A DNA stretch of 64,000 bases, from contig JAJUGR010000008.1 of the NCBI GenBank assembly GCA_029265905.1, positions 12,194-76,193 on the forward strand, in the 5' to 3' direction. The stretch is from Sporomusaceae bacterium (GTDB lineage: Bacteria > Bacillota > Negativicutes > Acidaminococcales > JAJUGR01). The translations under genes were made by a program, and so were the position numbers. The notes under the pieces are model-generated. The model was not told where the DNA came from and did not search any database. It saw only the letters and a program-made list of their open reading frames with translations. The stretch's first letter is position 1. Each line of letters starts with the position of its first letter. Positions 24,807-40,033 of this stretch are shown here, in pieces.

Positions 24807-26228
24807 GTGAAACAACAAGGGCTTTTTATTGCTGGGAAATGGACGATGACGCCGGAAAAAATTTCCGTGCTGAACAAGGCGACCGGCGAGGTCGCGGCCT
24901 ATGTTTCCGTGGCCGGAGAAACTGAGGTGACAGCCGCGGTCGATGCGGCGGAAGCGGCGTATAAGACTAGAAAGCTTGAACCGTATCAGCGCTACGAAAT
25001 CTTGCTGACGGCAAGCCTGCTGCTTAGGGAAAAACGTGACGAAATGGCGAAATTGCTCTGCGCGGAGGTCGGCAAGCCGTATAAGGAAGCCTTTGCTGAA
25101 GTAGGGCGGGCGGCTCAGACGCTGATGTTGTCGGCGGAGGAAGCAAAACGGCTCCAGGGCGATATGGTGCCGCTGGCCGGCGCGCCCGGCTGCGGCAACC
25201 GCCTGGCGTTTACGCTGCGCGTGCCGGTGGGGATTGTCTGCGCCATCACGCCGTTTAATTTCCCGCTGAACCTGGCTTGCCACAAAATCGGACCGGCGCT
25301 GGCGGCCGGCAACGCGGTGGTCTACAAGCCGGCCACCGCCACACCGCTGACGGCGGTCAAGCTGTGCGAGGTTTTTGCGGAAGCGGGGCTGCCGGACGGC
25401 TATTTGAATTTGCTGACGGGACCCGGCGGGCGACTGGGGGAACTGCTGGTGCGGGAGGCGCGGATCGGCTGCTACAGTTTTACCGGCAGCCCGGCGGTGG
25501 GCAAGCAGCTGCTCAAGGATGTCGGCATGCGCAAAGTAGCGCTGGAATTGGGCTCTAATTCGGCCAATATCGTTCACCACGACGCCATCTTGCAAACGGC
25601 GGCGGAAACGTGCGTGCGGCAAGCGTTTGCCAATGCGGGTCAGGTGTGCATTTCCTGCCAGCGCGTCTATGTTCATCGTTCCGTTTATGAAGACTTTTGC
25701 GCCAAGGCAACGGCTTATGCCAAGACGCTCAAGCTGGGCGATCCGCTTGATCCGAACACGGACATCGGACCGATGATCAGCGAGGCCGAGGCGGCGCGCG
25801 CCCACGCTTGGGTGGAGGAAGCCGCTCAGCAAGGGGCGCGGGTTCTGGTTGGCGGAAAGAGAAACGGCGCCTGGTTTGAGCCGACGATCCTGACACAGGT
25901 CACGCCGGCGATGAAGGTCAGTTGCCAGGAAGTGTTTGCGCCGATTTTTTCGATTGTCCCCTATGACGAGATTGGCGAAGCGATTGCCTTGGTCAACAAC
26001 TCGATGTACGGCCTGCAGGCCGGCGTGTTCACCAATTCCGTCGATGTCGCCTACCGCTGCGCGCGGGAGATCGAAGTGGGCGGCGTGATCATCAATGACG
26101 GCGCGACCTTCCGCACCGACAACATGCCGTACGGCGGCATCAAGGACAGCGGCATTGGCAAGGAAGGGCCGGAATATGCGATCAAAGAGATGACGGAGGA
26201 AAAGCTGGTTGTCTTCAATCTTGCCTGA
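24807..26228 (+). CDS. NAD(P)-dependent aldehyde dehydrogenase
   Basis: 473 aa. ALDH motifs FTGSPAVG, ELGSNSA (Glu site) and GQVCISCQR (catalytic Cys). GTG start lies 6 nt after GAGGAGGA. Confidence 0.9.
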   Translation: MKQQGLFIAGKWTMTPEKISVLNKATGEVAAYVSVAGETEVTAAVDAAEAAYKTRKLEPYQRYEILLTASLLLREKRDEMAKLLCAEVGKPYKEAFAEVGRAAQTLMLSAEEAKRLQGDMVPLAGAPGCGNRLAFTLRVPVGIVCAITPFNFPLNLACHKIGPALAAGNAVVYKPATATPLTAVKLCEVFAEAGLPDGYLNLLTGPGGRLGELLVREARIGCYSFTGSPAVGKQLLKDVGMRKVALELGSNSANIVHHDAILQTAAETCVRQAFANAGQVCISCQRVYVHRSVYEDFCAKATAYAKTLKLGDPLDPNTDIGPMISEAEAARAHAWVEEAAQQGARVLVGGKRNGAWFEPTILTQVTPAMKVSCQEVFAPIFSIVPYDEIGEAIALVNNSMYGLQAGVFTNSVDVAYRCAREIEVGGVIINDGATFRTDNMPYGGIKDSGIGKEGPEYAIKEMTEEKLVVFNLA

Positions 26229-26325
26229 GGCGCCCTTATCAGGACGGCGCAAACGTGTTACAGTATAAGATGTAGCCGTTGCGCTGTCAGGGCGGCGGCA
26301 TTGGCATGATGAAAGAGGGATACGG

Positions 26326-26997
26326 ATGTACGAGTTTAAAGACGAAGGCGCATTGGTCGTGTTTAGCGGCGGTCAGGACAGCACGACCTGCTTGTTTTGG
26401 GCGCTGGAGACGTTCAAAACGGTAGAGGTTGTGACGTTTGACTACAACCAGCGCCATAAGGCGGAAATAGCCTGTGCGAAGAAAATCGCATCAGACCTGC
26501 AGGTGCCGCATGCGATTTTGGATATGTCGCTGTTGGGGCAATTGGCCCCGAATGCGCTCACCAGAAGCGACATCGAAGTGAAGGCCGGGGAGGACGGCGC
26601 CCTGCCGTCGACATTTGTTGATGGGCGCAACCTGCTCTTTTTGTCCTTTGCCGCCGTGCTGGCCAAACAAAAAGGGCTGCGCCACATTGTCACCGGCGTT
26701 TGCGAGACGGATTTTTCCGGTTATCCGGATTGCCGGGATGTTTTCATCAAGTCGCTGAATGTGACGCTGAATCTGGCGATGGACTACCAGTTCGTGCTGC
26801 ACACGCCGCTGATGTGGATCAACAAGGCCGAGACCTGGGGGCTGGCGGATCGCCTGGGCAAGCTGGAGTACGTGCGGCAAAACACGCTCACCTGCTACAA
26901 CGGCCTCATCGGGGACGGCTGCGGCACTTGCCCGGCCTGCCTGCTTAGAAAGCGCGGCCTGGAGCAGTATCTGGCTGGAAAGGGGATCGCGATATGA
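26326..26997 (+). CDS. queC: 7-cyano-7-deazaguanine synthase
   Basis: [13 protein letters not shown] (PP-loop) and the C-terminal Zn cluster CYNG...GCGTCPAC are QueC hallmarks. Confidence 0.93.
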
Positions 26998-27389
26998 AAC
27001 CGCTAACTATCAAAATCACGAAGGCGTTTACGTTTGACGCCGCGCATTTTTTGCCGGAGCACGATGGGAAATGTTCCGCGATGCACGGCCACACCTACCG
27101 GCTGGAGGTCAGCGTGGCGCGCACCGACGGACAGCTGATCGCTGCGGGGCCGAGCGCGGGCATGGTCATCGACTTTTTCCACTTGAACCAACTGGTCAAG
27201 GAGGAAATTATCGACAAGGTTGACCATGCCATTTTGAACGACGTTTTTTCCTTCCGGACAACGTCGGAGAACCTGGCCTGCCACTTTTACCAGGTGCTGT
27301 CGCAAAAGCTTGGCGCGCAGGGGGTCAGGGTCGCTAAAATCAAGCTGTGGGAGACGCCGACTTCCTACGTGGAGGTTGGCGATGAATAG
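26994..27389 (+). CDS. queD: 6-carboxy-5,6,7,8-tetrahydropterin synthase
   Basis: 131 aa. FDAAHFLP...C..MHGHTY (Zn His triad and catalytic Cys) typical of QueD/PTPS. 4-nt overlap with queC. Confidence 0.9.
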
Positions 27390-27972
27390 TAAATATCCGG
27401 TCCTCGAGGTGTTCGACAGCGTTCAGGGCGAAGGGCTTCATGCGGGCCTCGGCGCGACGTTTATCCGCCTGGCGGGCTGCAACCTGCGCTGCACCTGGTG
27501 CGATACGGCTTATTCGGTCGCGGGCGATGGCGGCGAATCGCTGTCGGTCGAGGAACTGCTGGCCCGGCAGGCCTTCGCCCAGCCGATGGTCATCATCACC
27601 GGCGGCGAACCGACGCTGCACGACCTGGGGCCGCTGGTGCAGGCGCTCCACGCCCGCGGCAAGTACGTGTGCCTGGAGACGAACGGCACGAATCCGGTGC
27701 CGGAGGAATGGGGCATCGACTGGATCACCGTTTCACCCAAGCCGCAGAGCGGGTACGCCGTGCGCTGCCGGGCGAACGAGCTGAAGTACGTTGTTGACGA
27801 GGGCTTTTCGCTGGCGGTGGTTGACTTTGACAAGGCGCCCGGCCACATCATCCTGCAGGTGGAAAGCTGCCGGCCGGCGTCCGTGGCCAAGGCCTACGCG
27901 CTGGTCATGGAAAATCCGCAGCACAAGCTGCGCCTGGGCGTGCAGCTGCACAAGCTGATCGGCGTTGAATAA
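27382..27972 (+). CDS. queE: 7-carboxy-7-deazaguanine synthase (radical SAM)
   Basis: EVFDSVQGEG...GCNLRCTWCDT (CX3CX2C variant cluster motif of QueE). ATG at 27382 follows GGAGG and overlaps the queD end by 8 nt. Confidence 0.9.
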   Translation: MNSKYPVLEVFDSVQGEGLHAGLGATFIRLAGCNLRCTWCDTAYSVAGDGGESLSVEELLARQAFAQPMVIITGGEPTLHDLGPLVQALHARGKYVCLETNGTNPVPEEWGIDWITVSPKPQSGYAVRCRANELKYVVDEGFSLAVVDFDKAPGHIILQVESCRPASVAKAYALVMENPQHKLRLGVQLHKLIGVE

Positions 27973-27982
27973 GGGGCGGACT

Positions 27983-28705
27983 ATGGCAAAGCGCAAGGCC
28001 GCGCCAGCCGTGGCAACCGTGCAGTTTGAGGGGCTCGAACTGGAAGTGGTGCGCCGGGCGGTGAAAAACCTGCGCATCAGCGTTTATCCGCCCGACGGGC
28101 GCGTGCGGGTCGTCGTTCCGCTGCGGGCCGGCGAAGCCTTTTGGCAGGCGGCCGTCCGTTCGAAGCTGGAATGGATCCGTCAAAAGCAGCAGTTATTGGC
28201 GCACGGGCAAAGCGACGCGCACACGCCGCTTTATTGCTCCGGCGAGACGCACTTTTTTCTCGGCCATCCCTACTGCCTGCAGGTTCAAAACCACGCGGGC
28301 CCGGCGAAGGTCTGCATTCGCAACGAGCGGGTGCTTGACTTTTTTGTCCGGGAAGGCTGGGCCGACGCGCAGCGGGAAAAGGCTTTTTTGGGCTGGTACC
28401 GGGAGCAGCTGCGCGTCCTGGTGCCGCTCCTGTTAGACAAGTGGCAGCCGGTGCTCGGCGTTGCGGCCCGCGAGTGGGGGATCAAGCGCATGAAAACGCG
28501 CTGGGGCACGTGCAATGTCACGGCCCGGCGCATCTGGCTCAACCTGGAACTGGCGAAAAAACCGTTCGCCTGTCTGGAATATGTCGTCGTCCACGAGCTC
28601 GTTCACTTATTGGAGCGCTCGCACAACGCCCGCTTTTGGGGGCTGATGGACCGGTTTTTGCCCGACTGGCGGGAAAGCAAAGCGCAATTGAATAAAAGAA
28701 GTTAA
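27983..28705 (+). CDS. YgjP/DUF45-type (M48-like, SprT-like) zinc metallohydrolase
   Basis: 240 aa. RWGTC...the Zn motif VVHELVHLLERSHNARFW (HExxH) in the typical C-terminal position of the YgjP family. ATG at 27983 follows AAGGGG. Confidence 0.85.
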   Translation: MAKRKAAPAVATVQFEGLELEVVRRAVKNLRISVYPPDGRVRVVVPLRAGEAFWQAAVRSKLEWIRQKQQLLAHGQSDAHTPLYCSGETHFFLGHPYCLQVQNHAGPAKVCIRNERVLDFFVREGWADAQREKAFLGWYREQLRVLVPLLLDKWQPVLGVAAREWGIKRMKTRWGTCNVTARRIWLNLELAKKPFACLEYVVVHELVHLLERSHNARFWGLMDRFLPDWRESKAQLNKRS

Positions 28706-28720
28706 TTTGGAGGTGATGCG

Positions 28721-29572
28721 GTGAAAAAAAATGTTCTGACTGTGCTTGAGCAGGAAATGCCTAATTTGACCGCAGCGCAGCGGCAAATAGCAGATTACAT
28801 TTTAAAAAATGCGGTAGAAGTTTCTTTTCTTACCCTTGATCAGTTGTCAGGTCTTGTCGGAACAAGCACGACTACTGTGATGCGCCTCACCTTTAACCTT
28901 GGCTATAGCGGGTATGCGGAATTTCAGAAAGATTTGCAGGAATTGCTGCGTAACCGAGTGGCCCCAGGGACACGGCTTGAAGCAAATTTGAAAGCGTTGG
29001 AGCGGAAGAGTTTGCTGGTGAAGTGCGCCGAAAAACAGATTGAAAATATTCAAGAAACGTTGGACTACCTTTCAGATGAATCGGTTGCCCGCTCCGTTGA
29101 AATGATCATGCAAGCAAGAAAAATTTATGTTGTAGGGGTGAGAACGTCCTTTACGGCTGCCTATTACTTATATCAAGGCTTGACTCGCATCCTGGATAAT
29201 TGCGAACTGCTTGAAATCGACACGGGCGCACAAATTGATCGCATCTTAAATATAACGCCGCAGGACTTGGTGATTGCTTTCAGTTTTCCAAGGTATGCAC
29301 GCAGCATAGTTGAGCAGGTCAAACGGATAACAGAACAACGTGGGGCGAAAGTAATGCTAATTACGGATAGCTATTCCTGTCCGTTGGTGAACGTTGCGGA
29401 CGTAACGTTGCCTTGCGGCTGTGGCAGTTTGGCTTACCACAATTCCATGTCGGGCGCGATATTGGTTTCCGATTTTCTGATTACATCTATTACTGTGCAG
29501 GATCCTGTGAATACTAAAAAAAGATTGGAAGAATCGGAAGTGCTTTTAAAAAGCATGAATTACCACGTTTAG
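28721..29572 (+). CDS. RpiR/MurR-family transcriptional regulator (HTH + SIS domain)
   Basis: N-terminal HTH_6 (LTAAQRQIADYILKN...LTLDQLSGLVGTSTTTVMRL) and a C-terminal SIS fold (IYVVGVRTSFTAAYYL...). GTG start follows GGAGGTGA. First gene of the AT-richer block. Confidence 0.88.
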   Translation: MKKNVLTVLEQEMPNLTAAQRQIADYILKNAVEVSFLTLDQLSGLVGTSTTTVMRLTFNLGYSGYAEFQKDLQELLRNRVAPGTRLEANLKALERKSLLVKCAEKQIENIQETLDYLSDESVARSVEMIMQARKIYVVGVRTSFTAAYYLYQGLTRILDNCELLEIDTGAQIDRILNITPQDLVIAFSFPRYARSIVEQVKRITEQRGAKVMLITDSYSCPLVNVADVTLPCGCGSLAYHNSMSGAILVSDFLITSITVQDPVNTKKRLEESEVLLKSMNYHV

Positions 29573-29601
29573 TTACTGAACAACAATAGCTGGATAGTGT
29601 T

Positions 29602-29643
29602 AAGACACTCCTTGTCATTTGGCGAGGAGTGTCTTTTTTTTTT
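29602..29643 (+). terminator. rho-independent terminator after the RpiR-family gene
   Basis: AAGACACTCCT (29602-29612) pairs with AGGAGTGTCTT (29625-29635), followed by T9. Confidence 0.8.
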
Positions 29644-29655
29644 GCGCGATCGGGA

Positions 29656-29684
29656 TTGACTATTTAAAATAGTCGATATATACT
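29656..29684 (+). promoter_or_regulatory. sigma-A promoter with embedded 17-nt perfect palindrome (candidate operator)
   Basis: TTGACT (29656-29661), 17-nt spacer, TATACT (29679-29684). The palindrome GACTATTTaAAATAGTC (29658-29674) spans the -35 and spacer. Confidence 0.55.
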
Positions 29685-29932
29685 GAAGGTAGTAAATAAT
29701 ACGACTAAAAATAAAAAAGTAAGAAATAAAACTAACAAAGAAAAAGGGGTGCCAGTACCGTTTAGGATTAAGCAAGAACATCTGCAGGGATAAGGACATA
29801 AAAGAGTGGGTTTTGCCAAGCTTTTAGCCGGCTCGTGCGTATATTCTGCGGGTGATGATCATAAATAGAAAATGGTGTGTTGGATTTTAAAAGTCAAATT
29901 TAGTTGCGTTATTAATGAGAGGGGATTGAAAC

Positions 29933-30490
29933 ATGCGGGAACAAATATTGGCCTTACTACCGGAGATTAACTGGGTGAAAGATGAAAAAATTCGGGAGGC
30001 GGTTATCGCAACCCACATTGATGCTTTAACAGAAGGCGGGTGGAAGCCGGAAGACATGGACCGAATCCCTTTTGCGCTGGCGTTTCCAAATTGTCCTGCT
30101 TCCTATTTGCGCCATATTAAGGCGGTTACACATATGTGCCGCAGCATACTGGAAGAATACAATTCGATTTATCAAGGGCAAGGCGATTTTACCTTAGACC
30201 ATGATCGACTGATAGCCGGCGCTTTGCTGCATGACATCGGTAAACTGGTGGAATGGAAGGAAGGCGCTGATGGCAAGTTCGGCAAATCAGAGACCGGCAA
30301 ATTAATGCGGCATCCTTTGTCGGGGACGGTCATCGCGATGCGTAACGGCATCAGCTATGAAATTGGACACATTATTGCCTATCATGCCCATGAAGGGGAT
30401 GATGCCAAACGAAGCCCAGAGGCGGTGATTGTCAACAAGGTGGATATGATGAACTTTGACAGCATCCGTTCAACGCTGGGTTATTTGTAA
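29933..30490 (+). CDS. HD-domain metal-dependent phosphohydrolase (small, stand-alone)
   Basis: 185 aa. H...HD...H...H...D ligand series (HIKAVTH, LLHDIGK, MRHPLSG, AYHAHEGD, VNKVD). GAGAGGGG RBS. Confidence 0.8.
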   Translation: MREQILALLPEINWVKDEKIREAVIATHIDALTEGGWKPEDMDRIPFALAFPNCPASYLRHIKAVTHMCRSILEEYNSIYQGQGDFTLDHDRLIAGALLHDIGKLVEWKEGADGKFGKSETGKLMRHPLSGTVIAMRNGISYEIGHIIAYHAHEGDDAKRSPEAVIVNKVDMMNFDSIRSTLGYL

Positions 30491-30535
30491 GCTGATGTTT
30501 TCTGTAAGAGATAAGCGCGTAGTGGAGGTTTAACA

Positions 30536-31939
30536 ATGGACAGCCGAATCAAAAAGTCGCTAATCTGCATTGCGGTCGCTCTTGTTATTCTTGTTATTCC
30601 CCCGCCGGCAGGATTATCAGCAACAGCATGGCAAATTTTTGCTGTATATGTAGCGGCCATCCTAGGAATGATTTTGCGGCCTTTCCCAGAACCCGTTGTA
30701 CTGCTGGCGGCGGTGAGCGCGCTTAGCATTGCTTTGCGCAATCCGTCTGGTTTTTTAGTGGGGTATTCGACGCCGATTACGTGGCTGATTTTGTCGGCCT
30801 TTATGATCGGCACGGCTTTTGCGGAAACCGGTTTGGGACGTCGGATTGCTTTCCTGCTGATCAAAAAATTCGGCCATACCACCATGCGGCTGGGATATGT
30901 GGCCGCTTTCACCGATCTTGCCTTGAGTCCGGTTACGCCGGCCAATACGGCCCGGACAGGGGCCATTATTTGGCCTATCTTCCGGAGCATTGCGTCAACC
31001 CTTGGTTCAGAGCCAGGGCCTACTGCACGCCGCGCAGGTAGTTATTTTGCGCTCATTTTGTATCAGATCAGCCTCACTACCGGTACGTTATTTGTGACTG
31101 CTACAGCTCCCAACCTGCTCATGCTGTCTTTTTCCAAAAAAATACTGAATGTAGATGTTTCATGGCTCGAATGGGTTCAAGCGGCTATCGTGCCCGGTAT
31201 GATCATTCTGCTGCTCATACCGTTTGTGGTATACAAATTATATCCGCCTGAGATGAAAGAAATTGACAATATTGTTCTTGCGGATACGGAACTGGCCAAG
31301 CTGGGGCCGATGACGAAAAAAGAAAAGATCTTGGCTGTGTTGTTCACTGTGGCGATCATCGGGTGGTTAACAGGAAGCATCACCAAAATCGATGCGTCAT
31401 CCATCGCGGTCGGGTTTGTTGCCTGCAGTTTGATTACGGGTATCCTTTCTTGGGATCACTGTTTGAACGCTAAAGGCGGCTGGAGTACTTTCATGTGGTA
31501 TGGGGGTATTATCGGCATTGCGGATGCCTTATCAAAGGCAAAATTCTTTGAATGGTTAGCCCAATTGTTTATGCAAAACCTCAATTTCCAAGGTTATAAC
31601 CAGGTTCTTGTTATGGCAGGTCTAGTTTTCTTCAGCATTATCATCCGCTATCTGTTTGCCTCGCAAGGCGCTTTTGTGGTGACAATGACACCTGTGTTGC
31701 TGACGCTGGCATCGGTGGCTAATGTGCCGGCATTGCCGATTACATTGCTGCTCTGCTATGCCGCGGCTTATGCTTCTATGTTGACTCACTATGGTGGTGC
31801 TTTGGGCCCGATACTGTTTGGGCCTGGCTATGTGTCACAAAAGCAATGGTGGACGATTGGTGCGGTGGTTGTAGCGCTGAGCTTTATTGTTGATTTCACA
31901 ATTGGCCTTTCGTATTGGAAATTGATTGGCCTGTGGTAA
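30536..31939 (+). CDS. DASS-family (divalent anion:Na+ symporter/anion permease) transporter, copy 1
   Basis: 467 aa with ~12-14 TM. Two hairpin-type motifs (SPVTPANTARTGAI and a C-terminal counterpart, THYGGALGPI) as in CitT/SdcS/TtdT-like permeases. Confidence 0.82.
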   Translation: MDSRIKKSLICIAVALVILVIPPPAGLSATAWQIFAVYVAAILGMILRPFPEPVVLLAAVSALSIALRNPSGFLVGYSTPITWLILSAFMIGTAFAETGLGRRIAFLLIKKFGHTTMRLGYVAAFTDLALSPVTPANTARTGAIIWPIFRSIASTLGSEPGPTARRAGSYFALILYQISLTTGTLFVTATAPNLLMLSFSKKILNVDVSWLEWVQAAIVPGMIILLLIPFVVYKLYPPEMKEIDNIVLADTELAKLGPMTKKEKILAVLFTVAIIGWLTGSITKIDASSIAVGFVACSLITGILSWDHCLNAKGGWSTFMWYGGIIGIADALSKAKFFEWLAQLFMQNLNFQGYNQVLVMAGLVFFSIIIRYLFASQGAFVVTMTPVLLTLASVANVPALPITLLLCYAAAYASMLTHYGGALGPILFGPGYVSQKQWWTIGAVVVALSFIVDFTIGLSYWKLIGLW

Positions 31940-31982
31940 GTAGAGAACTATAAAACTATAAAAAATCGATGGGGGGTAAAAC

Positions 31983-33440
31983 ATGTCATCTATTGTGCAA
32001 ACCCAAACTGGTCTTGATTACTGGCGCAGGCAAATCGGCTTCCCTTTGATGATTCTCCTCTTTTCAGCGGTTTTATTAATGCCTACTCCGGAAGGTTTGA
32101 CGCTGGAAGGACAGCGCGCATTAGCGATTTTGGCTGGATTGATGACCTTGTATTTAACCGAACCGGTTGAGTTGACCGTGGCTAGTCTGCTAGTTATCCC
32201 GGCGGCGGTATTTCTGAAGTTGGCAAATATCAATCAGGTGTTGCAAGATTTTGCCACCTCGCCAATTTTTCTATTGGTAGGTGCTACTATGATGGCAGCG
32301 GCCATGGAAAAAACTCGATTGGCTGAACGGTTCACCTATTGGCTGTTGTCGAAAATCGGTTGCTCGGCTCGCAACATTACTTTGGGCGTGACCTTGGCCA
32401 ATATCGCGCTGGCTTTTATGGTTCCATCCACTACGGCCCGAACGGCAATTTTACTGCCTATTTGCCTGGCGGTAATTGCGTTGTACAAGCAGGCTAATCA
32501 GGGTGATGAGGAAGGCGGACGTTCGAATTTTGCGATTGGTTTGCTGCTGACGTTGGCATTCACTAATTCTACAATTTGTGCAGGGATTCTTACTGCGACC
32601 GTGCCCAATCCGATCACTGTTGACTTTGTCTTAAAGGCTAGCGGCGTAACGATTACGTATATGGATTGGTTGATGTACGGTTTTCCTCCGGCGTTAGTAT
32701 GCACTTTCATCACGTGGTGGTATTTGCGAGTCGCATTTAAACCGGAGCATGAAACGATTCCCGGTGGTGAGGAGCATATTGTGGAAAAACTCCAGGCCAT
32801 GGGCAAAATGAGTTCTGCGGAGTGGCGCACTTTGGCGGTGTTTATTTTCGTCGTTGGTTTGTGGGCCACTGGTGGCATAACGAAGATTGACACGACAGTG
32901 GCTTGCTACATTGGTGTATGCCTGCTGTTCATGCCTAAATTCGGTGTAATTACCTGGAAAGACACGAATCGCGATTCAGCATATCATATCTTGATGATGA
33001 GCGGTGGGGCCTTAGCCATGGGGCACTTCTTGATGAAAACTGGCGCTGCAAAATGGCTAGCTTTCAGAGTTTTTAATGCGCTAGGTTTAGTCGGCGCATC
33101 GTCTTTGGTGGTTATCCTGGTTGTTATGTTTATTGTTCAGTTTGCCCGTTTCGGCTTTTTTGGCACCACGGGGCTTGCGGTCTTGTTCATGCCGATTATC
33201 GTTTCTCTGGCGGCTGAGGCAGGTCTACCGGCTGCGGCGCTGGCGATGCCGATGGGAATGCTGATCGGCGGGTTTCCTTTTCTCATGTTTTACAACACCT
33301 TGTCCAACATTCTGATTTTGGGTACGGGCATGGTGTCAGTAGGTGATTTCCCCAAAACAGGCTTTATCCTTTGTTTGATGGGAATAGGCGTTTATACAAC
33401 TTTCGCTGTCACTTATTGGCGCTGGCTGGGGTTGTTCTAA
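31983..33440 (+). CDS. DASS-family transporter, copy 2 (divergent paralogue)
   Basis: 485 aa with the same topology. The MVPSTTARTAILLPI hairpin motif is typical of DASS/SLC13-like carriers. Only distantly similar to copy 1. Confidence 0.82.
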   Translation: MSSIVQTQTGLDYWRRQIGFPLMILLFSAVLLMPTPEGLTLEGQRALAILAGLMTLYLTEPVELTVASLLVIPAAVFLKLANINQVLQDFATSPIFLLVGATMMAAAMEKTRLAERFTYWLLSKIGCSARNITLGVTLANIALAFMVPSTTARTAILLPICLAVIALYKQANQGDEEGGRSNFAIGLLLTLAFTNSTICAGILTATVPNPITVDFVLKASGVTITYMDWLMYGFPPALVCTFITWWYLRVAFKPEHETIPGGEEHIVEKLQAMGKMSSAEWRTLAVFIFVVGLWATGGITKIDTTVACYIGVCLLFMPKFGVITWKDTNRDSAYHILMMSGGALAMGHFLMKTGAAKWLAFRVFNALGLVGASSLVVILVVMFIVQFARFGFFGTTGLAVLFMPIIVSLAAEAGLPAAALAMPMGMLIGGFPFLMFYNTLSNILILGTGMVSVGDFPKTGFILCLMGIGVYTTFAVTYWRWLGLF

Positions 33441-33485
33441 TTAGTGGTAAATCAAAAAATTGATTTCAAGAAAGAGGGGTAATGC

Positions 33486-34466
33486 ATGGAGGTAATCGCA
33501 TTAACAGGAACTTATGATCCGGAGATTAAAGCAATGATCGCCGAGATGGTGCCGGAAGGATTCAAACTAAAAATTGTTTCCAGTTTTGAGGAATATGACC
33601 AATTGCAAGAGGCGAACTACATCATATTGCGCATTTTAGGTTTGAATGAACAGCACATCAACTCATTGCCCAATTTGAAGTTAATCCAACGTTGGGGCGT
33701 TGGCTATGAAAAGGTGGACGTAAAGGCGGCAACTAAAAATAATGTGGCCGTGGCCGTCACCTCCGGCATGAACGCTACGTCTGTGTCGGAAATGGCGACA
33801 CTGTTGATGTTATCTGTGTATCGTCATGTACTCAAGTTGCATGACAATGTAGTGAACGGTAAATGGCAAGAGGGTGGTTTCGGCAGCTTTTCTTATACGC
33901 TTGATAACAAGAAGGTTGGTTTGGTTGGGTTAGGTGCCATTGGTAAATTAGTGGCAAAAAAGGTGCAGGCTTTTGGAGCAGAGGTTCAATACTATGATTT
34001 GTTCCGATTATCTGAAGCAGATGAAGCAAAGTTAGGGTTGAAATACGTAGAACTGAATGAATTGTTTAAAACCTCTGATGTCATCAGCTTGCACGTACCT
34101 GCAAACGACAGTACCAAACATTTGGTTCGAAAAGAGACAATCGAGTTGATGAAGCCAACTGCCATTATTATTAATACTGCAAGAGGACAAGTGATCAAAG
34201 AGGATGATTTAGTAGAAGCCCTGAAGACTAAACGGATTTTGGGCGCTGGATTGGATTGTTTGGAGATAGAACCACCAGCCAAGGATAATCCGATCTTGAC
34301 TTTGGAAAATGTTGTACTTACGCCCCATATGGGTGGCAGCACATCGGACATCAATTTAGCTATGGCCAAACGGTGTATAGAAAACATTGTTAAAATCAGC
34401 AAAGGACAGGATTTGTTAAAGACAGACCTGGTTAATCCAGAGTGTTTTCCGATAAGAAAAGCATAA
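33486..34466 (+). CDS. D-isomer-specific 2-hydroxyacid dehydrogenase
   Basis: 326 aa. Rossmann motif GLVGLGAIGKLVAKK, followed by the catalytic R...E...H series (INTARGQ, LDCLE, TPHMGG), as in the PGDH/GyaR family. Confidence 0.9.
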   Translation: MEVIALTGTYDPEIKAMIAEMVPEGFKLKIVSSFEEYDQLQEANYIILRILGLNEQHINSLPNLKLIQRWGVGYEKVDVKAATKNNVAVAVTSGMNATSVSEMATLLMLSVYRHVLKLHDNVVNGKWQEGGFGSFSYTLDNKKVGLVGLGAIGKLVAKKVQAFGAEVQYYDLFRLSEADEAKLGLKYVELNELFKTSDVISLHVPANDSTKHLVRKETIELMKPTAIIINTARGQVIKEDDLVEALKTKRILGAGLDCLEIEPPAKDNPILTLENVVLTPHMGGSTSDINLAMAKRCIENIVKISKGQDLLKTDLVNPECFPIRKA

Positions 34467-34515
34467 TGGGTACTCGGTTTGCTTTTACAATAAAAAATTG
34501 AAAAGAGGGATTTAG

Positions 34516-35211
34516 ATGTCAAATGTAGGTTGTCGAGTGTTTTTGAAGGTGAACCGTCCTAGCAAAGAATTAGTTGAGGGCTTTAAAGGGCTGCCTGTGG
34601 CCAATATTGCAGATGAAATGAACCGTTTTTATTGCGTAGATGCAAGAATTAAACCCTATAACGACAAACCGTTGTTGGGCACGGCGTTTACTGTAAAAGT
34701 ACGGGTTGCAGACAATTTATTTCTTCATAAAGCGTTGGAATTGGCGCAACCAGGAGATGTGCTTATCGTTGATGCACAAGGGGATGTAGCAAATGCCATC
34801 ACTGGGGAGATTATGATGACCCAGGCGGCGGTCAATGGTTTGGCTGGCGTGGTAATCGACGGCGCAATCCGAGACGCTGAAGCAATGAAGGACCTTGATA
34901 TGTCAATTTACGCTGCAGGGGTTCAGCCGAAGGGACCTTATAAAGACGGTCCGGGTGAGATCAATGTCCCTGTCTGCTGCGGGGGTGTAGTCGTAAATCC
35001 AGGCGACATTGTGGTTGGGGACAAAGATGGAATTGTCATTATTAACCCTAAGGACGCGCCAATTGTTTTGGAGAAAGCTAAAGTAAAACTTGCCACAGAA
35101 ACAAAAGCCCTTGAAGTTATCAGATCAGGCGAAAAGCGGGAGAAGCCGTGGCTTGAAAAAGGACTGAAAGCAGTCAACTGTGAAATCATTGACGGATTCT
35201 ACAACGAATAG
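34516..35211 (+). CDS. RraA-like protein (class II 4-hydroxy-2-oxoacid aldolase / oxaloacetate decarboxylase family)
   Basis: 231 aa. GDVLIVDAQGD...AITGEIMMTQAAVNGLAGVVIDGAIRD is the conserved RraA/HMG-CHA aldolase core. Confidence 0.85.
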   Translation: MSNVGCRVFLKVNRPSKELVEGFKGLPVANIADEMNRFYCVDARIKPYNDKPLLGTAFTVKVRVADNLFLHKALELAQPGDVLIVDAQGDVANAITGEIMMTQAAVNGLAGVVIDGAIRDAEAMKDLDMSIYAAGVQPKGPYKDGPGEINVPVCCGGVVVNPGDIVVGDKDGIVIINPKDAPIVLEKAKVKLATETKALEVIRSGEKREKPWLEKGLKAVNCEIIDGFYNE

Positions 35212-35220
35212 TCACTTGGG

Positions 35221-35276
35221 CAACAAAAACGACTGTGTGCGCCGCCTAACGGCAGCGTACACAGTCGTTTTTGTTG
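35221..35276. terminator. bidirectional terminator with 18-bp outer stem closing the AT-rich block
   Basis: CAACAAAAACGACTGTGT (35221-35238) pairs with ACACAGTCGTTTTTGTTG (35259-35276), with an inner GCCG/CGGC helix. It lies between the RraA-like gene and the convergent cyclophilin gene. Confidence 0.8.
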
Positions 35277-35283
35277 TTGCAGT

Positions 35284-35901
35284 CTATTTTTCCTGCTCGG
35301 TGATGGTAACCTTGTTGATGACGACGGCCTGGACCGGCTTGTCGTTGGCGCCGGTTTTCACCTTGCCGATCGCCCGGACGACGTCCATCCCCTTCACGAC
35401 CTTGCCGAAGACGGCGTGCTTGCCGTCGAGCCAGGGGGTTTTATCCAGGGTGATGAAGAACTGCGAGCCGCCGGTGTTGGGGCCGCGGTTGGCCATCGAG
35501 AGAACGCCTTCATTGTCGTGCTTCAAACCGGGATGGAATTCGTCGGGAATGGCGTAGCCGGGCCCGCCGGTGCCGTTCCCGTTCGGATCGCCGGACTGGA
35601 TCATGAATTTATCGATGACCCGGTGAAAGATCAGGTTGTTGTAGAAGCCCTTGTTGGCGAGCGCAATGAAGTTGCCCGTCGTGATGGGCGCCTTGTCTTC
35701 GAACAGCTCAATTGCGAACACGCCTTGGTTGGTTTCGAACACGGCCAGACGGTTTTTTCCGTCCTTGGCCGGCGCAGGCTGGGTTTGGACAGGCGGCTGC
35801 GGCGCCGGCGCGGGTGGCGTCTGCTTTGGTTCGCTGGCGCAGCCGACGGCGGTAAGGAGCAGGAGGCAGAGGGCAAACAGCAGGCTGATTTTTGTTTTCA
35901 T
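35284..35901 (-). CDS. cyclophilin-type peptidyl-prolyl cis-trans isomerase, lipoprotein
   Basis: Lipobox LLTAVGC after the signal peptide. The cyclophilin core is [15 protein letters not shown]...GGPGY...[18 protein letters not shown] at 35901 follows AAAGGAG. Confidence 0.9.
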
Positions 35902-35922
35902 GCAAAACACTCCTTTAAGTTC

Positions 35923-35960
35923 ATGAACAAACGGCCTGCGAATATCTTGCTCGCAGGCCG
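35923..35960 (-). terminator. terminator after the carboxynorspermidine synthase gene
   Basis: CGGCCTGCGA pairs with TCGCAGGCCG (35932-35941 / 35951-35960), followed on the minus strand by TTTGTT. Confidence 0.55.
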
Positions 35961-35968
35961 TCACTCTG

Positions 35969-37231
35969 TTAGTCAATCGATTCGAGGGATTTGATTTCCG
36001 GGGCGACAAACGGAGCCGGGTTTTCCACATACTCGGTGGGCAGGCCCATTGTGTCGAGCAGGTCGATAAACGGCCGCGGGTCGAGCTCTTCGACGTTGAC
36101 CATTTTCTTCACATCCCAGACGCCCTGCGCGACCAGGATGGCGGCCGCCACGGGCGGAACGCCGGCGGTGTAGCTGATCGCCTGCGATTCGACTTCCTTG
36201 TAGCATTCGGCATGGTCGCAGGTGTTGTAGATGAACAGGGTCTTTTCCTTGCCGTCCTTCGTGCCGCGGAAGAAGTTGCCGATGCAGGTCTTGCCGGTGT
36301 AGTTGGGGGCCAGGGAGGACGGATCCGGCAGCAGCGCCTTCAACACTTTCAGCGGCGCGACTTCCACGCCTTCGGCCACTTTCACCGGTTTTTCGGAGAT
36401 CAGGCCGATGTTGCTCAGGACGGAGAAGACGTTGAGGTAATGGTCGCCAAAGCCCATCCAGAAGCGGATCGAGTTGGCGTCGATATTTTTGGACAGCGAA
36501 TGCAGCTCGTCATGGCCGGTCAGGTAAACCGGCTGGCTGCCGCAGACCGGGAAGTCGTAGTCGACGCGGATCGAGTGCACTTTTTGCAGCACCCATTTGC
36601 GGTCGATCCAGGTCCAGACCTTCTTGAATTCGCGGAAATTGATTTCCGGGTCGAAGTTGGTGGCGAAATACTTGCCGTGGCTGCCGGCGTTGACGTCGAG
36701 AATATCGATCGTATCGATTTTGTCGAAGTGCTCTTTTTGCGCCAGGGCGCACCAGGCGTTGACGACGCCCGGATCAAAGCCGACGCCGAGGATGGCGGTG
36801 ACGCCGTGTTCCGCGCAGCGCTCCTTGCGTTTCCACTCATAGTTGGCGTACCAGGGCGGGTTTTCGCAAACTTTGTCCGGCTCCTCGTGGATCGCCGTGT
36901 CCATGTAGACGGCGCCGGTGCGGATGCAGGCTTCCAAAACGGACATGTTGATGTAGGACTGGCCGACATTGATGACGATTTCCGACTCCGTGTCTTCGAT
37001 CAGGTCGACGAGCGCTTCAATATCCAGCGCATCGACGTGGCGCGAATACAGGTCCTTGGACGGATCCTTCAGACTGCCCTTGCGCTTGATACTCTCTATA
37101 ATTTCCTCGCATTTTTTTCGCGTTCGCGATGCCAGGCAAATGTGACCCAGGATATCATTGTGCATTGCGCACTTGTGGGCCACGACGTGTCCAACACCGC
37201 CAGCGCCAACAATTAAAACATTTTTTTTCAA
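35969..37231 (-). CDS. carboxynorspermidine synthase/dehydrogenase (saccharopine dehydrogenase family)
   Basis: 420 aa. N-terminal Rossmann motif [16 protein letters not shown], with length and C-terminal domain as in CANSDH. Adjacent to nspC. Apparent TTG start 10 nt after AAGGGGG. Confidence 0.82.
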
Positions 37232-37270
37232 TCTTTTTATACCCCCTTGGATTTTTATTTATCCTAGAAA

Positions 37271-38374
37271 CTAGGATAGATTGTGCAGGAAGTCGGCGTA
37301 ATCGAATTCGCGGACGAGTTCGATCGTGCCATCAAGGCGACGGACGGCAATGCTGGGCATTTGCAGGCCGTTGAACCAGTTTTTCTTCACCATCGTGTAG
37401 CCGGCGGCGTCGGCGATGCGCACTTCGCTGCCGATTTCGAGCTTGTCTTGGAAGGAGAAGGTGCCGAACACATCGCCGGCCAGGCAGGAGCGTCCCGCCA
37501 CCATATATTCATGTTCGCCGGGCGTGCCGGTTTCGATTTTGGCGTTGAGGCGGTAAATCAGCAGATCCAGCATATGCCCCTCGATGCAGGCGTCGACGAT
37601 GGCGATCTCTTTTTCGTTGTGCACGATGTCGACGACGCTGGTCACAAGCTCGGTGCTGTTCGTGATGGCGCTTTCGCCCGGTTCGAGGTAGATTTGCACG
37701 CCGTAGGCGGCGGAGAAATCAGCCAATTTTTGCGCGAAGCGCTCGACGGGGTAACCTTCCTTCGTGAAGGCCAGGCCACCGCCCAAGCTGATCCACTGCA
37801 GTTTTTTCAGCATATCGCCGTAGGTTTCGCCGAGCCAGTCGAGCTGCTGGGCGAATGTTTCGAACTCGTCGTTTTCGCAATTGTAATGGAACATGAAGCC
37901 GCTGAGGCGCGGCAGCTGTTTTTCCAGGGCTTCGCGGTCGATGACGCCCAAGCGGGAGTACTGGCGGGCCGGATCGGCCAGGTCGAAGTGCGAATAGCTG
38001 ACGCCTGGGTTGACGCGCAGGCCGAGCTTTTTCCCCTTGGCCTGCTCATAATAACGGTCCAGTTGGGAAACCGAGTTGAAGATGACCTTGTCGGCGTACT
38101 GGAGGATTTCCCGCATGTCGTCGTCAGAATAACCAACGCAAAAGGCATGGGTTTCCTTGCCGAATTTTTCGGCGCCAAGCCGCGCTTCGTAGAGCGAACT
38201 CGAGGTCGTCCCGTCCATATATTGTTTCATCAAGTCAAAAACGCACCAGGTGGAGAAGCATTTAAGGGCCAAAACCGATTTGGCGCCGGACAGCTCGCGC
38301 ACCTGCCGGATGATTTTCAAATTGCGGAGAAGCTTGTTCTCGTCAATTAAGTAGTAAGGTGTTTTTATTTTCAT
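37271..38374 (-). CDS. nspC: carboxynorspermidine/carboxyspermidine decarboxylase
   Basis: ~367 aa. Alanine-racemase-fold PLP decarboxylase. TPYYLIDE...LALKC (PLP Lys region)...SLGGG...the CLAGD motif matches NspC. ATG at 38374 lies 9 nt after AGGAG. Confidence 0.88.
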   Translation of the reverse strand: MKIKTPYYLIDENKLLRNLKIIRQVRELSGAKSVLALKCFSTWCVFDLMKQYMDGTTSSSLYEARLGAEKFGKETHAFCVGYSDDDMREILQYADKVIFNSVSQLDRYYEQAKGKKLGLRVNPGVSYSHFDLADPARQYSRLGVIDREALEKQLPRLSGFMFHYNCENDEFETFAQQLDWLGETYGDMLKKLQWISLGGGLAFTKEGYPVERFAQKLADFSAAYGVQIYLEPGESAITNSTELVTSVVDIVHNEKEIAIVDACIEGHMLDLLIYRLNAKIETGTPGEHEYMVAGRSCLAGDVFGTFSFQDKLEIGSEVRIADAAGYTMVKKNWFNGLQMPSIAVRRLDGTIELVREFDYADFLHNLS

Positions 38375-38595
38375 TGGCAAAGGCTCCTAGTTTTTTTCAT
38401 TAAGGATAATGATAGCAAAAATAAAGAGGTTTGTCGAGATTTCCTGAACAAATAGAGGGTTTTTAGATGAAAATCGAAGAAATTTTGCGAAAACAAGCAT
38501 TTGCCGGGAAAGAGAAATTTCTTCGCCAAACGGCGCTTGCCTGACGCGCGAATATGATATGATGAGGGCAACGGATTATCACGAGGAGGACTGGC

Positions 38596-39915
38596 ATGTT
38601 TACTACGGCAACAATCATTCTGCTTGGCTTGAATGCAATTATCTTGTTCCTGGTGGCGGCGCTGTTTTTACGCAGCGGCGGCAAAAAAGAAGCGGAGCTC
38701 GACGTGCGCCTCGCAACGCTGGAAGCGGCGCTCGAGCGCATCGACCGCAACGTGCGCGAGGAGAATACGCGCGCCCGCAGCGAAACGGGCCAAAGCGCGA
38801 AGGCGTTGCGCGACGAGGTCGGCCAGTCGCTTAGCCGCTTCAATGAGTCGGTCTTAAACCGCCTGAACGAAGGGATGAAGCTGCAGCAGGCGCAGGCGGA
38901 TGCCTCGCTTCAGCAGTTGCAGCGCCTGACGCAATCAAACGAGCAGCGCATGGACAAATTGCGTGAGACGATCGACGCAAAGCTGAAGGCGATTCAAGAT
39001 GACAATGGCCTGCGCCTGGAGGAAATGCGAAAAACGGTTGATGAGAAGCTGCACGCCACGCTTGAAAAGCGCTTGGGGGAGAGTTTTAAGCTGGTTGGAG
39101 AGCGGCTGGAACTCGTACATAAAGGCCTGGGCGAGATGCAGCAGCTCGCGTCCGGCGTGGGCGACTTGAAGCGGGTGCTGTCGAACGTCAAGACGCGCGG
39201 CATTTTGGGCGAAATTCAGTTGGGCAATATACTGGAACAGATGCTGACGCCTGAACAATATGAGAAAAATGTTGCGACAAAACCGAACAGCAACGAGCGC
39301 GTCGAGTTTGCGATCAAACTGCCGGGGCGCGACAAAGAAGGGACGACTGTCTGGCTGCCTATCGATGCGAAGTTCCCGCAGGAGGATTACCAGCGCTTGC
39401 TGGATGCGCAGGAACAGGCCAATGCGGTTTTGGCGGAAGAGGCGGCCAAAGCTTTGGAAAACCGGATCAAGGGAGAGGCAAAAGAGGTCGCCGGCAAATA
39501 CCTGAGCGTGCCGCATACGACGGAGTTTGCCATCTTGTTTTTGCCGACGGAGGGCCTGTATGCCGAAGTGCTGCGCCGGCCGGGGCTGGTCGATGTGCTG
39601 ATGCGCGAACACCGGGTGGTGATAACCGGTCCGACCACGCTGGCGGCCCTGCTCAACAGCTTGCAAATGGGCTTCCGTACGCTGGCGATCGAGCGCCGCA
39701 GTTCGGAGGTCTGGGCGCTTTTAGGAACGGTCAAGACGGAGTTCGGCAAGTTCGGCGACCTGCTGGACAAGACGAGCAAAAAGCTGCATGAGGCGAGCAG
39801 CTCGATTGAAACCGCCGCCCGGAAGTCGCGCACGATCGAGCGAAAATTGAAAAATGTCCAGGCCCTGCCGGCCCCGGAGGAGGAAGCGTTGCCCCTCCCG
39901 GCTGACATGGAATAA
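38596..39915 (+). CDS. rmuC: DNA recombination protein RmuC
   Basis: 439 aa. N-terminal TM anchor, a long coiled-coil (Q/E/L/R-rich), and a C-terminal nuclease-like domain with VEFAIKLPG...LPIDAKFP...FLPTEG, as in RmuC. Confidence 0.9.
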   Translation: MFTTATIILLGLNAIILFLVAALFLRSGGKKEAELDVRLATLEAALERIDRNVREENTRARSETGQSAKALRDEVGQSLSRFNESVLNRLNEGMKLQQAQADASLQQLQRLTQSNEQRMDKLRETIDAKLKAIQDDNGLRLEEMRKTVDEKLHATLEKRLGESFKLVGERLELVHKGLGEMQQLASGVGDLKRVLSNVKTRGILGEIQLGNILEQMLTPEQYEKNVATKPNSNERVEFAIKLPGRDKEGTTVWLPIDAKFPQEDYQRLLDAQEQANAVLAEEAAKALENRIKGEAKEVAGKYLSVPHTTEFAILFLPTEGLYAEVLRRPGLVDVLMREHRVVITGPTTLAALLNSLQMGFRTLAIERRSSEVWALLGTVKTEFGKFGDLLDKTSKKLHEASSSIETAARKSRTIERKLKNVQALPAPEEEALPLPADME

Positions 39916-40005: not shown

Positions 40006-40033
40006 CGCATAGTGCTTGTCGGGAGGAGTTCGG

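Follow-up and report, generated by a model that had tools for sequence, protein, structure and literature searches.

A recently exchanged gene block of a Sporomusaceae bacterium, probably an RpiR-controlled operon for fermentation of a hydroxycarboxylate

Two described systems come closest to the gene block that is the subject of this report. One is the aldolase for HMG/CHA (4-hydroxy-4-methyl-2-oxoglutarate/4-carboxy-4-hydroxy-2-oxoadipate) known as LigK, GalC or PcmE (PDB entry 3NOJ), with which the protocatechuate 4,5-cleavage and gallate pathways end; the other is citrate fermentation, whose standard gene cluster comprises a transporter, a lyase, an oxaloacetate decarboxylase and a regulator (PMC6193673). 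The block lies at positions 28721–35276 of a 64,000-bp stretch of a Sporomusaceae bacterium genome (assembly GCA_029265905.1, contig JAJUGR010000008.1, forward-strand positions 12,194 to 76,193), which was analyzed as a whole and is called the window here. It is made up of a gene for an RpiR-type regulator and five downstream co-directional genes for an HD-domain protein, two DASS carriers (DASS1 and DASS2), a 2-hydroxyacid dehydrogenase and an RraA-like protein (Table 1). The block is a real catabolic island, and we favor, with moderate confidence, the interpretation that it is a horizontally exchanged, RpiR-controlled operon that probably ferments an external hydroxy-di- or tricarboxylate by oxidation and aldol cleavage. 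A preliminary description of this DNA, made from its letters and ORFs (open reading frames) only, had recognized no described pathway in it, and full-text literature searches likewise found nothing on the gene combination, which is thus apparently undescribed in the literature found, nor on the link between the HD family and citrate lyase that is reported below. As a catabolic type (transporter, dehydrogenase, class II aldolase) the island is ordinary biology; its interest lies in the evidence for recent exchange and in the HD protein.

The RraA-like protein shares the fold and the catalytic and ligand residues of HMG/CHA aldolase, and its orthologue in one related locus (L041) is accompanied by two LigI-like lactonases. 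Unlike that enzyme, it comes from an anaerobic host, belongs to an unnamed subfamily (PRK06201), falls below both curated equivalog cut-offs and is paired with a 2-hydroxyacid dehydrogenase, an enzyme that has no place in the Lig pathway. That the block might be part of this pathway (LigI-LigU-LigJ-LigK) was considered and rejected: the window has a LigK-like gene only, LigI, LigJ and a ring-cleavage dioxygenase being absent from it. The related clusters, too, showed no LigJ or PrpF-type gene. The likeness to the citrate fermentation clusters (citT/citS plus citDEF) is a putative DASS carboxylate exchanger beside a putative oxaloacetate-forming lyase, with a dedicated regulator, and citDEF clusters hold DASS1 orthologues and HD homologues directly inside them (L098). 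In contrast to those clusters, the block has an RraA-like lyase and a dehydrogenase in place of citrate lyase, and citrate, being a tertiary alcohol, is excluded as a substrate of the dehydrogenase. The block thus resembles the LigK step and the citrate fermentation clusters most and, with LigI, LigJ and citDEF absent and the equivalog cut-offs not reached, belongs to neither.

Three other described systems bear on single genes. FlDet of Flavobacterium sp. UMI-01 is an RraA-family 2-keto-3-deoxy-glucarate dehydratase/decarboxylase activated by Mg2+, Co2+ or Ni2+ (PMC8563752). It too is an RraA-fold enzyme that follows a dehydrogenase, in an acid-sugar pathway, and so the fold is not confined to aldolases; it differs in that P, F and N take the places of the N71, H75 and K147 (3NOJ numbering) retained in the window protein, and the window lacks an alpha-ketoglutarate semialdehyde dehydrogenase. 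The HD protein has the fold and the H..HD..D motif of YhaM and of small HD phosphohydrolases (YfbR, the PgpH HD domain, PF0395-like proteins); unlike YhaM, it has no OB-fold nuclease domain and is always encoded inside carboxylate-catabolic operons. Finally, cog3964 amidohydrolases (EF_0837/Atu3266 type) and LigI-type lactonases, which would be upstream "unmasking" enzymes in related loci L005, L041, L131, L133 and L098, are absent from the window.

Composition and recent exchange of the block

The G+C content of the block is 45.8%, against 55.5% upstream and 57.1% downstream within the window, and it is the minimum among all 6.5-kb segments of the 64 kb; non-overlapping background segments of that size have a mean of 0.563 (standard deviation 0.022, minimum 0.518). 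The abrupt drop and recovery of base composition noted in the preliminary description are confirmed by a 200-nt profile, in which both borders are sharp steps, each ∼200 nt wide (from 0.57–0.64 to 0.43 over ∼28600–28800, and from 0.465 to 0.63 over ∼35200–35400), and its four hand counts on 60-nt lines were reproduced (38.3 and 41.7% inside the block, 61.7 and 66.7% outside). The shift that it had described at third codon positions is borne out as well: the G+C fraction there (GC3) is 0.44–0.54 in all six block genes, or z scores of −3.4 to −5.3 relative to the 40 other ORFs of the window (0.706 ± 0.049, minimum 0.615), and for the codon adaptation index, with the remainder of the window as training set, the z scores are −2.6 to −5.1. 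The host background in these composition tests is the 64 kb only.

Window positions 23809–40498 (16.7 kb) have a collinear counterpart in L038, a sister contig from a metagenome, which has the block at the same site, between queC-queD-queE-ygjP and the cyclophilin gene (L038 4912–11394 corresponds to window 28721–35211). L038 and a partial contig, L039, are the only close relatives found, and both carry the block there. The nucleotide identity of the block to L038 is 95.9%, whereas that of the left and right flanks is 83.3 and 86.6%; single block genes are 94–99% identical, while the flanking ygjP and cyclophilin genes are 84.5 and 84.7% identical. Identity changes in steps at ∼28700 and ∼35210, which coincide with the composition borders, and falls from 0.99 to 0.79 across a hairpin at 35221–35276. 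Since the flanks are 83–87% and the block 96% identical, acquisition or exchange of the block postdates the divergence of the hosts: it entered, or passed between, the window and L038 lineages well after their split. The acquisition that had been proposed from base composition is therefore supported beyond composition, by this contrast in identity and by its step on the borders.

Third-codon-position identity to L038 is 0.84 in the HD gene, 0.89 in DASS1, 0.91 in rpiR, 0.94 in DASS2, 0.95 in the dehydrogenase gene and 0.97 in the RraA-like gene, as against 0.64–0.75 in most flank genes (0.79 in nspC and 0.85 in CANSDH, a highly conserved carboxynorspermidine dehydrogenase-like gene near the block). 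Because these largely synonymous positions are also more conserved in the block, purifying selection is ruled out as the cause; a rough estimate (Jukes-Cantor on the third-position values) places neutral divergence in the block ∼4-fold below that of the flanks. It is thus very improbable that the block is native, its low G+C content arising from local mutational or expression bias and its higher conservation from stronger purifying selection. A native block would fit the shared site in the only close relative found and the lack of mobility genes or att repeats, but it would not account for identity and G+C steps that coincide at both borders, for parts with separate orthology partners, or for family-level relatives (L124 and L125) that have no block beside the conserved nspC-CANSDH pair, past which no synteny remains. 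CANSDH itself belongs to the saccharopine dehydrogenase family and is 83–86% identical to genes of Dendrosporobacter, Anaerospora hongkongensis and Sporomusa, which assigns the host to the Sporomusaceae (Negativicutes); a T-box leader farther downstream in the window points to the Firmicutes.

The window holds no integrase or transposase ORF, no flanking direct repeats above chance (as the preliminary description had also reported) and no tRNA gene, and a scan of viral contigs found no copy of the block, giving one irrelevant partial match. The search for an empty site, with YgjP as query against 185,579 species-representative genomes, gave no close YgjP homologue; those obtained are at most 52% identical and belong to unrelated phyla, with Hymenobacter among the best.

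There are also signs that the block is a mosaic. Related clusters are found in contigs of 46–48% G+C, and one of these, L132 (46% G+C), holds together orthologues of RpiR (49% identical), the HD protein (76%), DASS2 (78%, encoded between the HD and dehydrogenase genes), the dehydrogenase (64%) and the RraA-like protein (79%). The orthologues of DASS1 are found elsewhere, as neighbors of HD homologues: at 57% identity in Pelosinus propionicus (L133), and at 52% in citrate-lyase clusters of gut contigs (L098). The third-position values show that divergence from L038 is graded along the block, falling from the HD gene to the RraA-like gene, and the intergenic region of the block is only 87.6% identical to that contig. 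This gradation and the split orthology suggest that HD-DASS1 derive from one cluster lineage and DASS2-dehydrogenase-RraA from another, with more than one recombination event. The block is a clean, datable case of operon exchange among anaerobic Firmicutes without visible mobile-element machinery.

The L132 cluster (2640–11645) directly adjoins phage-integrase and RhuM gene fragments (169–2427); no such phage-integrase context was seen around the window block.

The RraA-like protein, the dehydrogenase and the proposed pathway

Among NCBIfam models the RraA-like protein passes only that of an unnamed subfamily, NF004850 (268.6 bits, cut-off 231), and it does not reach the LigK/PcmE equivalogs (NF006731, 146.9 vs 179; TIGR02798, 124.3 vs 304.5). 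Its nearest PDB entry is the P. putida HMG/CHA aldolase 3NOJ (E 4.7e-32; ∼29% identity over the BLAST-aligned region), of which it keeps residues R40, N71, H75, G101, R123, D124, G144, K147 and E199; in window numbering N71, R123, D124, K147 and E199 are N67, R119, D120, K143 and E195, and the same residues are present in nine relatives. In HMG/CHA aldolase R123 stabilizes the enolate, D124 and E199 are metal ligands, and N71 and K147 are proposed to bind the C5-carboxylate of CHA (PMC5065237); every functionally important residue listed there for the P. putida enzyme is kept in the window protein. Its predicted activities are those of a pyruvate aldolase of class II, dependent on Mg2+, and of an oxaloacetate decarboxylase, and the conserved N71 and K147 would favor a CHA-like substrate with a distal carboxylate, in which case the second product would be oxaloacetate. 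A FlDet-type dehydratase/decarboxylase function is disfavored by the weaker match to FlDet (51 bits, vs 96 for 3NOJ) and by the absence of N71, H75 and K147 from it.

The dehydrogenase has both its catalytic and its NAD-binding domain. It could not be placed in a substrate-defined subfamily (phosphoglycerate dehydrogenase, GhrB, glyoxylate reductase, PdxB or LdhA), all 29 NCBIfam hits being under their cut-offs; the best are phosphoglycerate dehydrogenase (224 vs 454) and glyoxylate reductase (215.8 vs 455), and the nearest PDB entries are enzymes of these same two kinds. In L132 and L041 the gene for its orthologue (64–67% identity) comes before that for the RraA-like protein.

Loci with close HD homologues (75–79% identity) are clusters with a constant core and a swapped periphery. 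L132, the closest full relative of the operon, has the order RpiR / lactonase, Ldh_2, HD, DASS2, 2-hydroxyacid dehydrogenase, RraA and MFS (major facilitator superfamily) carrier. In L041 the order is RpiR / LigI-like lactonase, MFS, cog3964 amidohydrolase, LigI-like lactonase, MFS, DUF1932 dehydrogenase, HD, 2-hydroxyacid dehydrogenase, RraA and TctB/A; L005 reads HD, TctC, cog3964 amidohydrolase, DUF1932 dehydrogenase, RraA, TctBAC, RpiR, and L083 has LysR / HD and, farther on, RraA and Ldh_2. Thus HD, a dehydrogenase, an RraA-like protein and RpiR recur in other anaerobes with different transporters. The nearest PDB entry of the two L041 lactonases is 2-pyrone-4,6-dicarboxylate hydrolase (4D8L, E ∼4e-37). 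The amidohydrolases of L005 and L041 score ∼426–435 bits with NCBIfam PRK12394, just under its cut-off of 442; cog3964 enzymes deacylate alpha-acyloxy carboxylates, and in these clusters they may unmask an acylated 2-hydroxy acid. Genes of this cog3964/EF_0837-like kind were located at L005 11566–12720, L041 5378–6529, L098 2900–4033, L131 225–1370 and L133 7814–8962.

RraA proteins of the PRK06201 type are also encoded on plasmids (44–55% identity, all with the aldolase residues), where they adjoin four unrelated kinds of dehydrogenase along with tripartite tricarboxylate (TTT), TRAP, DASS or ABC transporters. On Allorhizobium ampelinum pAtS4e the RraA gene lies beside a 2-hydroxyacid dehydrogenase and a TTT transporter, in Rhizobium it is found with a DUF1932 dehydrogenase and a DASS permease, and in Aminobacter with a Gfo/Idh/MocA oxidoreductase; elsewhere RraA and Ldh_2 are followed by an iron-alcohol dehydrogenase and an aldehyde dehydrogenase, together with a glycerate kinase (Azospirillum) or a D-glycerate dehydrogenase (Mesobacillus). 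Because non-homologous dehydrogenases replace one another beside a constant RraA-like gene, there is good evidence that the dehydrogenase and RraA-like steps are coupled, and the aldehyde-processing genes of some clusters imply a real aldol cleavage. The sequence of dehydrogenation and aldol cleavage put forward in the preliminary description is thereby supported, both by the retained R123, D124, E199, N71, H75 and K147 and by the repeated position of this RraA subfamily beside dehydrogenases of four folds. What recurs is a toolkit in which an RraA aldolase of the PRK06201 type is joined by a carboxylate carrier, by a 2-hydroxyacid dehydrogenase that varies and, optionally, by a lactonase or deacylase; it is spread over Negativicutes, Synergistota, alpha-proteobacterial plasmids and Bacillaceae plasmids, so that a single substrate assignment would annotate many genomes.

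The nearest solved structures of DASS1 are those of chloroplast DiT1 (E about 2.5e-77) and LaINDY (E about 3e-73), with no symporter match; DASS2 gives weak, mixed matches to all solved DASS structures (DiT1 1e-27, VcINDY 1e-22). The two carriers are not a duplicated pair, as they are just 25% identical and have different evolutionary partners. From its relationship to the exchanger-type DiT1 and LaINDY, DASS1 may swap substrate for product; the exchange that had been suggested for the carriers is thus plausible for this one.

In the pathway that we favor, the substrate would be taken up through the DASS carriers, DASS1 perhaps serving as substrate/product exchanger and DASS2 travelling with the dehydrogenase-aldolase pair. 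The NAD-dependent D-2-hydroxyacid dehydrogenase would oxidize the 2-hydroxyl to a 2-oxo group, and the Mg2+-dependent RraA-like aldolase would split the resulting 4-hydroxy-2-oxo acid into pyruvate and a second oxo-acid. The latter would be oxaloacetate if the substrate resembles 4-carboxy-4-hydroxy-2-oxoadipate, and an enzyme of the RraA-like family could also decarboxylate this oxaloacetate to pyruvate. The HD protein would be a conserved accessory metalloenzyme, probably working on an oxaloacetate-type intermediate. Since the lactonases and deacylases found in the fuller related clusters are missing from the window, its operon probably takes up the free acid and appears to be a trimmed version of those clusters.

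Several points weigh against this interpretation. No equivalog model is reached by the dehydrogenase, the aldolase or the regulator, and the RraA fold also hosts non-aldolase chemistry, as in FlDet. The HD protein is given no reaction, though no other member of the linkage group is as widely conserved. Phosphorylated sugars or sugar acids are the known effectors of RpiR regulators, a poor fit to a pathway without phosphate chemistry. Acquisition of the block has to be accepted without mobility genes, att repeats or an empty-site relative. Finally, 2-hydroxyacid dehydrogenases often run reductively, and the one in the window could act after the lyase and not before it, since glyoxylate/hydroxypyruvate reductases are among its nearest relatives.

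This last point leads to an alternative that we consider quite improbable, in which an imported 4-hydroxy-2-oxo acid is cleaved first and the dehydrogenase re-oxidizes NADH by reduction of the second product, be it glyoxylate, hydroxypyruvate or oxaloacetate, with the reduced acid leaving through DASS1. The glyoxylate reductases near the dehydrogenase and the presumed exchanger-type character of DASS1 would suit it, as would the needs of the host lineage, which is strictly anaerobic and requires electron sinks; however, free 4-hydroxy-2-oxo acids are unlikely as abundant external substrates, and the swapping of dehydrogenases (Ldh_2, DUF1932, Gfo/Idh) beside lactonases and deacylases looks like upstream activation of a substrate.

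A second alternative, possible though rather doubtful, dispenses with aldol cleavage of a C–C bond: a 2-hydroxy-3-carboxy acid of the D-malate, tartrate-isomer or isocitrate type would be oxidized to a beta-keto acid of the oxaloacetate type, and RraA, HD or both would only decarboxylate this product, to pyruvate or 2-oxoglutarate and CO2. Such a split oxidative beta-decarboxylation agrees with the annotation of HMG/CHA aldolases as bifunctional oxaloacetate decarboxylases (in the NF006731 and TIGR02798 descriptions and the name of PDB entry 3NOJ). Moreover, isocitrate/isopropylmalate-type beta-decarboxylating dehydrogenases fill the dehydrogenase slot in other HD contexts, and the relatives of DASS1 carry malate, 2-oxoglutarate or citrate-type anions, with orthologues in citrate-lyase clusters. 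Yet the kept N71 and K147 exceed the needs of a plain oxaloacetate decarboxylase, and the downstream aldehyde and alcohol dehydrogenases and glycerate kinase of the plasmid clusters imply an aldehyde fragment, and hence the aldol cleavage of the pathway that we favor.

The HD protein and its family

The stand-alone HD protein has its H..HD..D metal motif at H61, H100-D101 and D171, and additional H127, H151 and E154; all of these are invariant in its family. Its AlphaFold model has a pLDDT of 94, and the best PDB fold match of that confident model, and its one meaningful structural neighbor, is the HD domain of the exoribonuclease YhaM (E 4.6e-5, 20% identity, TM 0.71); by sequence there is no PDB relative better than E 0.22. 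The family is small, with 734, 320 and 31 representative clusters, of 1.84 billion, at E ≤ 1e-3, 1e-10 and 1e-30, respectively.

Among 84 loci with more distant HD homologues (43–62% identity), the next gene encodes an aconitase/isopropylmalate-isomerase-type large subunit in 39, followed by the small subunit in 25 of them. CitF is encoded immediately upstream of HD in 27 of the 84 (a representative scores above the citF equivalog cut-off), and in 21 a CitD/CitE gene precedes CitF; one locus has citryl-CoA-lyase-like genes instead. Of the 84 loci, 21 encode a GntR regulator and 12 a dehydrogenase of the isocitrate/homoisocitrate type, and six gut contigs have the arrangement LysR, CitD, CitE, CitF, HD and a DASS1-like gene. 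No conventional oxaloacetate decarboxylase was found in the flanks that were checked (L001–L004, annotated with Pfam, and those portions of L098 and of L085/L094 that were annotated); the sole ambiguous case is an HMGL-like gene in L098. Still more distant homologues, 31% identical, stand first in operons under LysR control on plasmids of Sinorhizobium and Bosea; these operons also encode ABC transporters and a 2-hydroxyacid dehydrogenase.

Some minor features of these loci may be recorded here. The genes of HD homologues (L001, L045–L123) often overlap the start or stop codons of their neighbors, for example within L085 7294–12299 and L098 7223–11966. On the Sinorhizobium meliloti plasmid CP050513 (L127 7983–15901) the operon headed by the 31%-identical homologue encodes an amino-acid-type ABC transporter, a 2-hydroxyacid dehydrogenase, an L-idonate 5-dehydrogenase, an SDR (short-chain dehydrogenase/reductase) and a gluconokinase. 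Some of the 31%-identical rhizobial copies bear the PGAP name "YhaM family exoribonuclease", which their context makes doubtful. In L131 (2814–7102) the HD-containing cluster encodes a fused glutamate-mutase-E/B12-binding protein together with a MutL-type reactivase and an enzyme of the PEP-mutase/isocitrate-lyase family, a set reminiscent of two steps in the fermentation of nicotinate, those of 2-methyleneglutarate mutase and dimethylmalate lyase.

Common to all of the HD contexts would be an oxaloacetate-type 2-oxo-acid intermediate, formed by citrate lyase, by RraA-like cleavage or by malate-type oxidation, and the context suggests that the HD protein probably acts on such an intermediate and not on a phosphate ester. 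The dephosphorylation step that the preliminary description had allowed for HD is not upheld: clusters with both HD and RraA-like genes contain no kinase, nothing points to a phosphorylated substrate, and the commonest partners (citrate lyase, aconitase-like hydro-lyases and isocitrate-type dehydrogenases) act on unphosphorylated tricarboxylates.

For the same reasons it is unlikely that the whole pathway runs on a phosphorylated substrate, with the HD protein as a phosphohydrolase that removes the phosphate and the SIS domain of RpiR sensing the phospho-acid. Members of the HD superfamily are mostly phosphohydrolases, and the H..HD..H..H..D pattern fits a dinuclear hydrolase site; the phosphorylated effectors of characterized RpiR regulators, and the phosphoglycerate dehydrogenases that give the dehydrogenase its top NCBIfam match and stand among its nearest PDB entries, also point this way. 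That top match, however, is under half of its cut-off, the sole kinase seen near an HD homologue is the gluconokinase beside the 31%-identical S. meliloti copy, and the dominant HD neighbors use substrates without phosphate. Nor is any organophosphate importer known to us among the DASS, TTT or MFS carriers of these clades.

A more specific idea, which we offer as speculative, is that the HD protein has a non-phosphohydrolase activity that completes oxaloacetate-forming lyase pathways in anaerobes. It is prompted by the citrate-lyase clusters that were checked, in which no conventional oxaloacetate decarboxylase is seen. In one form, the HD protein may be a soluble metal-dependent oxaloacetate (beta-keto-acid) decarboxylase that fills this "decarboxylase slot", which is seemingly empty in the citDEF/aconitase-like operons and also the RraA-like clusters that were checked. 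In another, it may catalyze an allylic isomerization as members of the PrpF family do (aconitate isomerase, LigU), for which the parallel would be that oxalomesaconate is to aconitate as CHA is to citrate. If the idea were true, the window operon would be one of several modular pathways built around the HD enzyme. A small family so tightly embedded in citrate-lyase, aconitase-like and RraA-like operons is in any case a well-posed target for enzyme discovery.

The regulator, control signals and flanking features

The features of the block and its borders are collected in Table 1. The gene coordinates and all six family assignments of the preliminary description proved correct in Pfam and NCBIfam scans.

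Table 1 Features of the block and its borders (window coordinates)
Feature	Position	Strand	Evidence or remark
YgjP-like metallopeptidase (host flank, left border)	27965–28705	+	Pfam YgjP-like, 191.8 bits
RpiR/MurR-family transcription regulator (HTH_6 + SIS)	28721–29572	+	Pfam HTH_6, 46.8 bits; SIS, 58.6 bits
Intrinsic-terminator-like hairpin and T-run ending rpiR	29602–29645	+	15-pair stem 29602–29635, then T9
Best promoter-like site, TTGACT-17-TATACT	29656–29684	+	10/12 consensus match
Palindrome TTGACTATTT-A-AAATAGTCGA	29656–29676	+	Contains -35 hexamer of promoter-like site
Stand-alone HD-domain metalloprotein (185 aa), first operon gene	29933–30490	+	Pfam HD (PF01966), 43 bits
DASS carrier 1, closest to exchanger-type carriers	30536–31939	+	TIGR00785, 394.7 bits (cut-off 198.6)
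DASS carrier 2, divergent family member	31983–33440	+	TIGR00785, 255.2 bits (cut-off 198.6)
D-isomer-specific 2-hydroxyacid dehydrogenase	33486–34466	+	Pfam 2-Hacid_dh_C (PF02826), 204.6 bits; 2-Hacid_dh (PF00389), 67.1 bits
RraA-like protein, subfamily PRK06201	34516–35211	+	Pfam RraA-like (PF03737), 163.1 bits (vs 24.5)
Long hairpin between convergent RraA-like and cyclophilin genes	35221–35276	.	26-nt arms 35221–35246 and 35251–35276
Cyclophilin-type peptidyl-prolyl isomerase (host flank, right border)	35284–36030	-	Pfam Pro_isomerase, 188.8 bits

On the left, ygjP is the final gene of the queC-queD-queE-ygjP run and has a host-like GC3 of 0.77; rpiR begins with a GTG codon 15 nt past the ygjP stop and has a GC3 of 0.48 (z −4.6). 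Both the N-terminal HTH_6 and the C-terminal SIS domain of RpiR are present, and it reaches no NCBIfam equivalog (best 77.5, cut-off 355). RpiR orthologues with 49–53% identity adjoin the related clusters in L132, L041 and L005.

The rpiR terminator is kept in L038 and L039, in both of which the palindrome of Table 1 is a perfect 10+10 repeat; the promoter-like site is likewise conserved there. The palindrome is a candidate RpiR operator, by its sequence and its position over the -35 hexamer, and RpiR would repress at this site until a pathway intermediate binds its SIS domain. An operator common to the distant clusters L132, L041 and L005 was sought and not accepted, as only AT-rich chance matches were obtained. 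The five downstream genes had been said to sit behind one promoter; the best promoter-like site is indeed present ahead of them, although as a consensus match only. A riboswitch or other leader RNA in the ∼245-nt leader (29685–29932) was also considered and rejected: no Rfam family reaches its gathering threshold, hits at E ≤ 1 are at chance level, and the fold z-score of −0.82 is not unusual. The regular 43–49-nt spacing of the five genes was reproduced (45, 43, 45 and 49 nt), and each of them is preceded by its own strong GGAGG-like ribosome-binding (Shine-Dalgarno) site.

At the right end, the terminal hairpin of the preliminary description exists, and its stem is longer than the 18 bp given there: the 26-nt arms are 92% complementary and enclose a 4-nt loop. 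Since it has an A-run on one side and a T-run on the other, it is probably a bidirectional terminator, as well as the right border of the block.

Farther downstream, a T-box leader (41663–41860, + strand; Rfam RF00230, 96.8 bits) lies upstream of a 529-aa gene (ORF 41934–43523), and the equivalent place in related contigs is occupied by a phosphoglycerate-dehydrogenase-type gene (2-Hacid_dh plus PGDH_inter).

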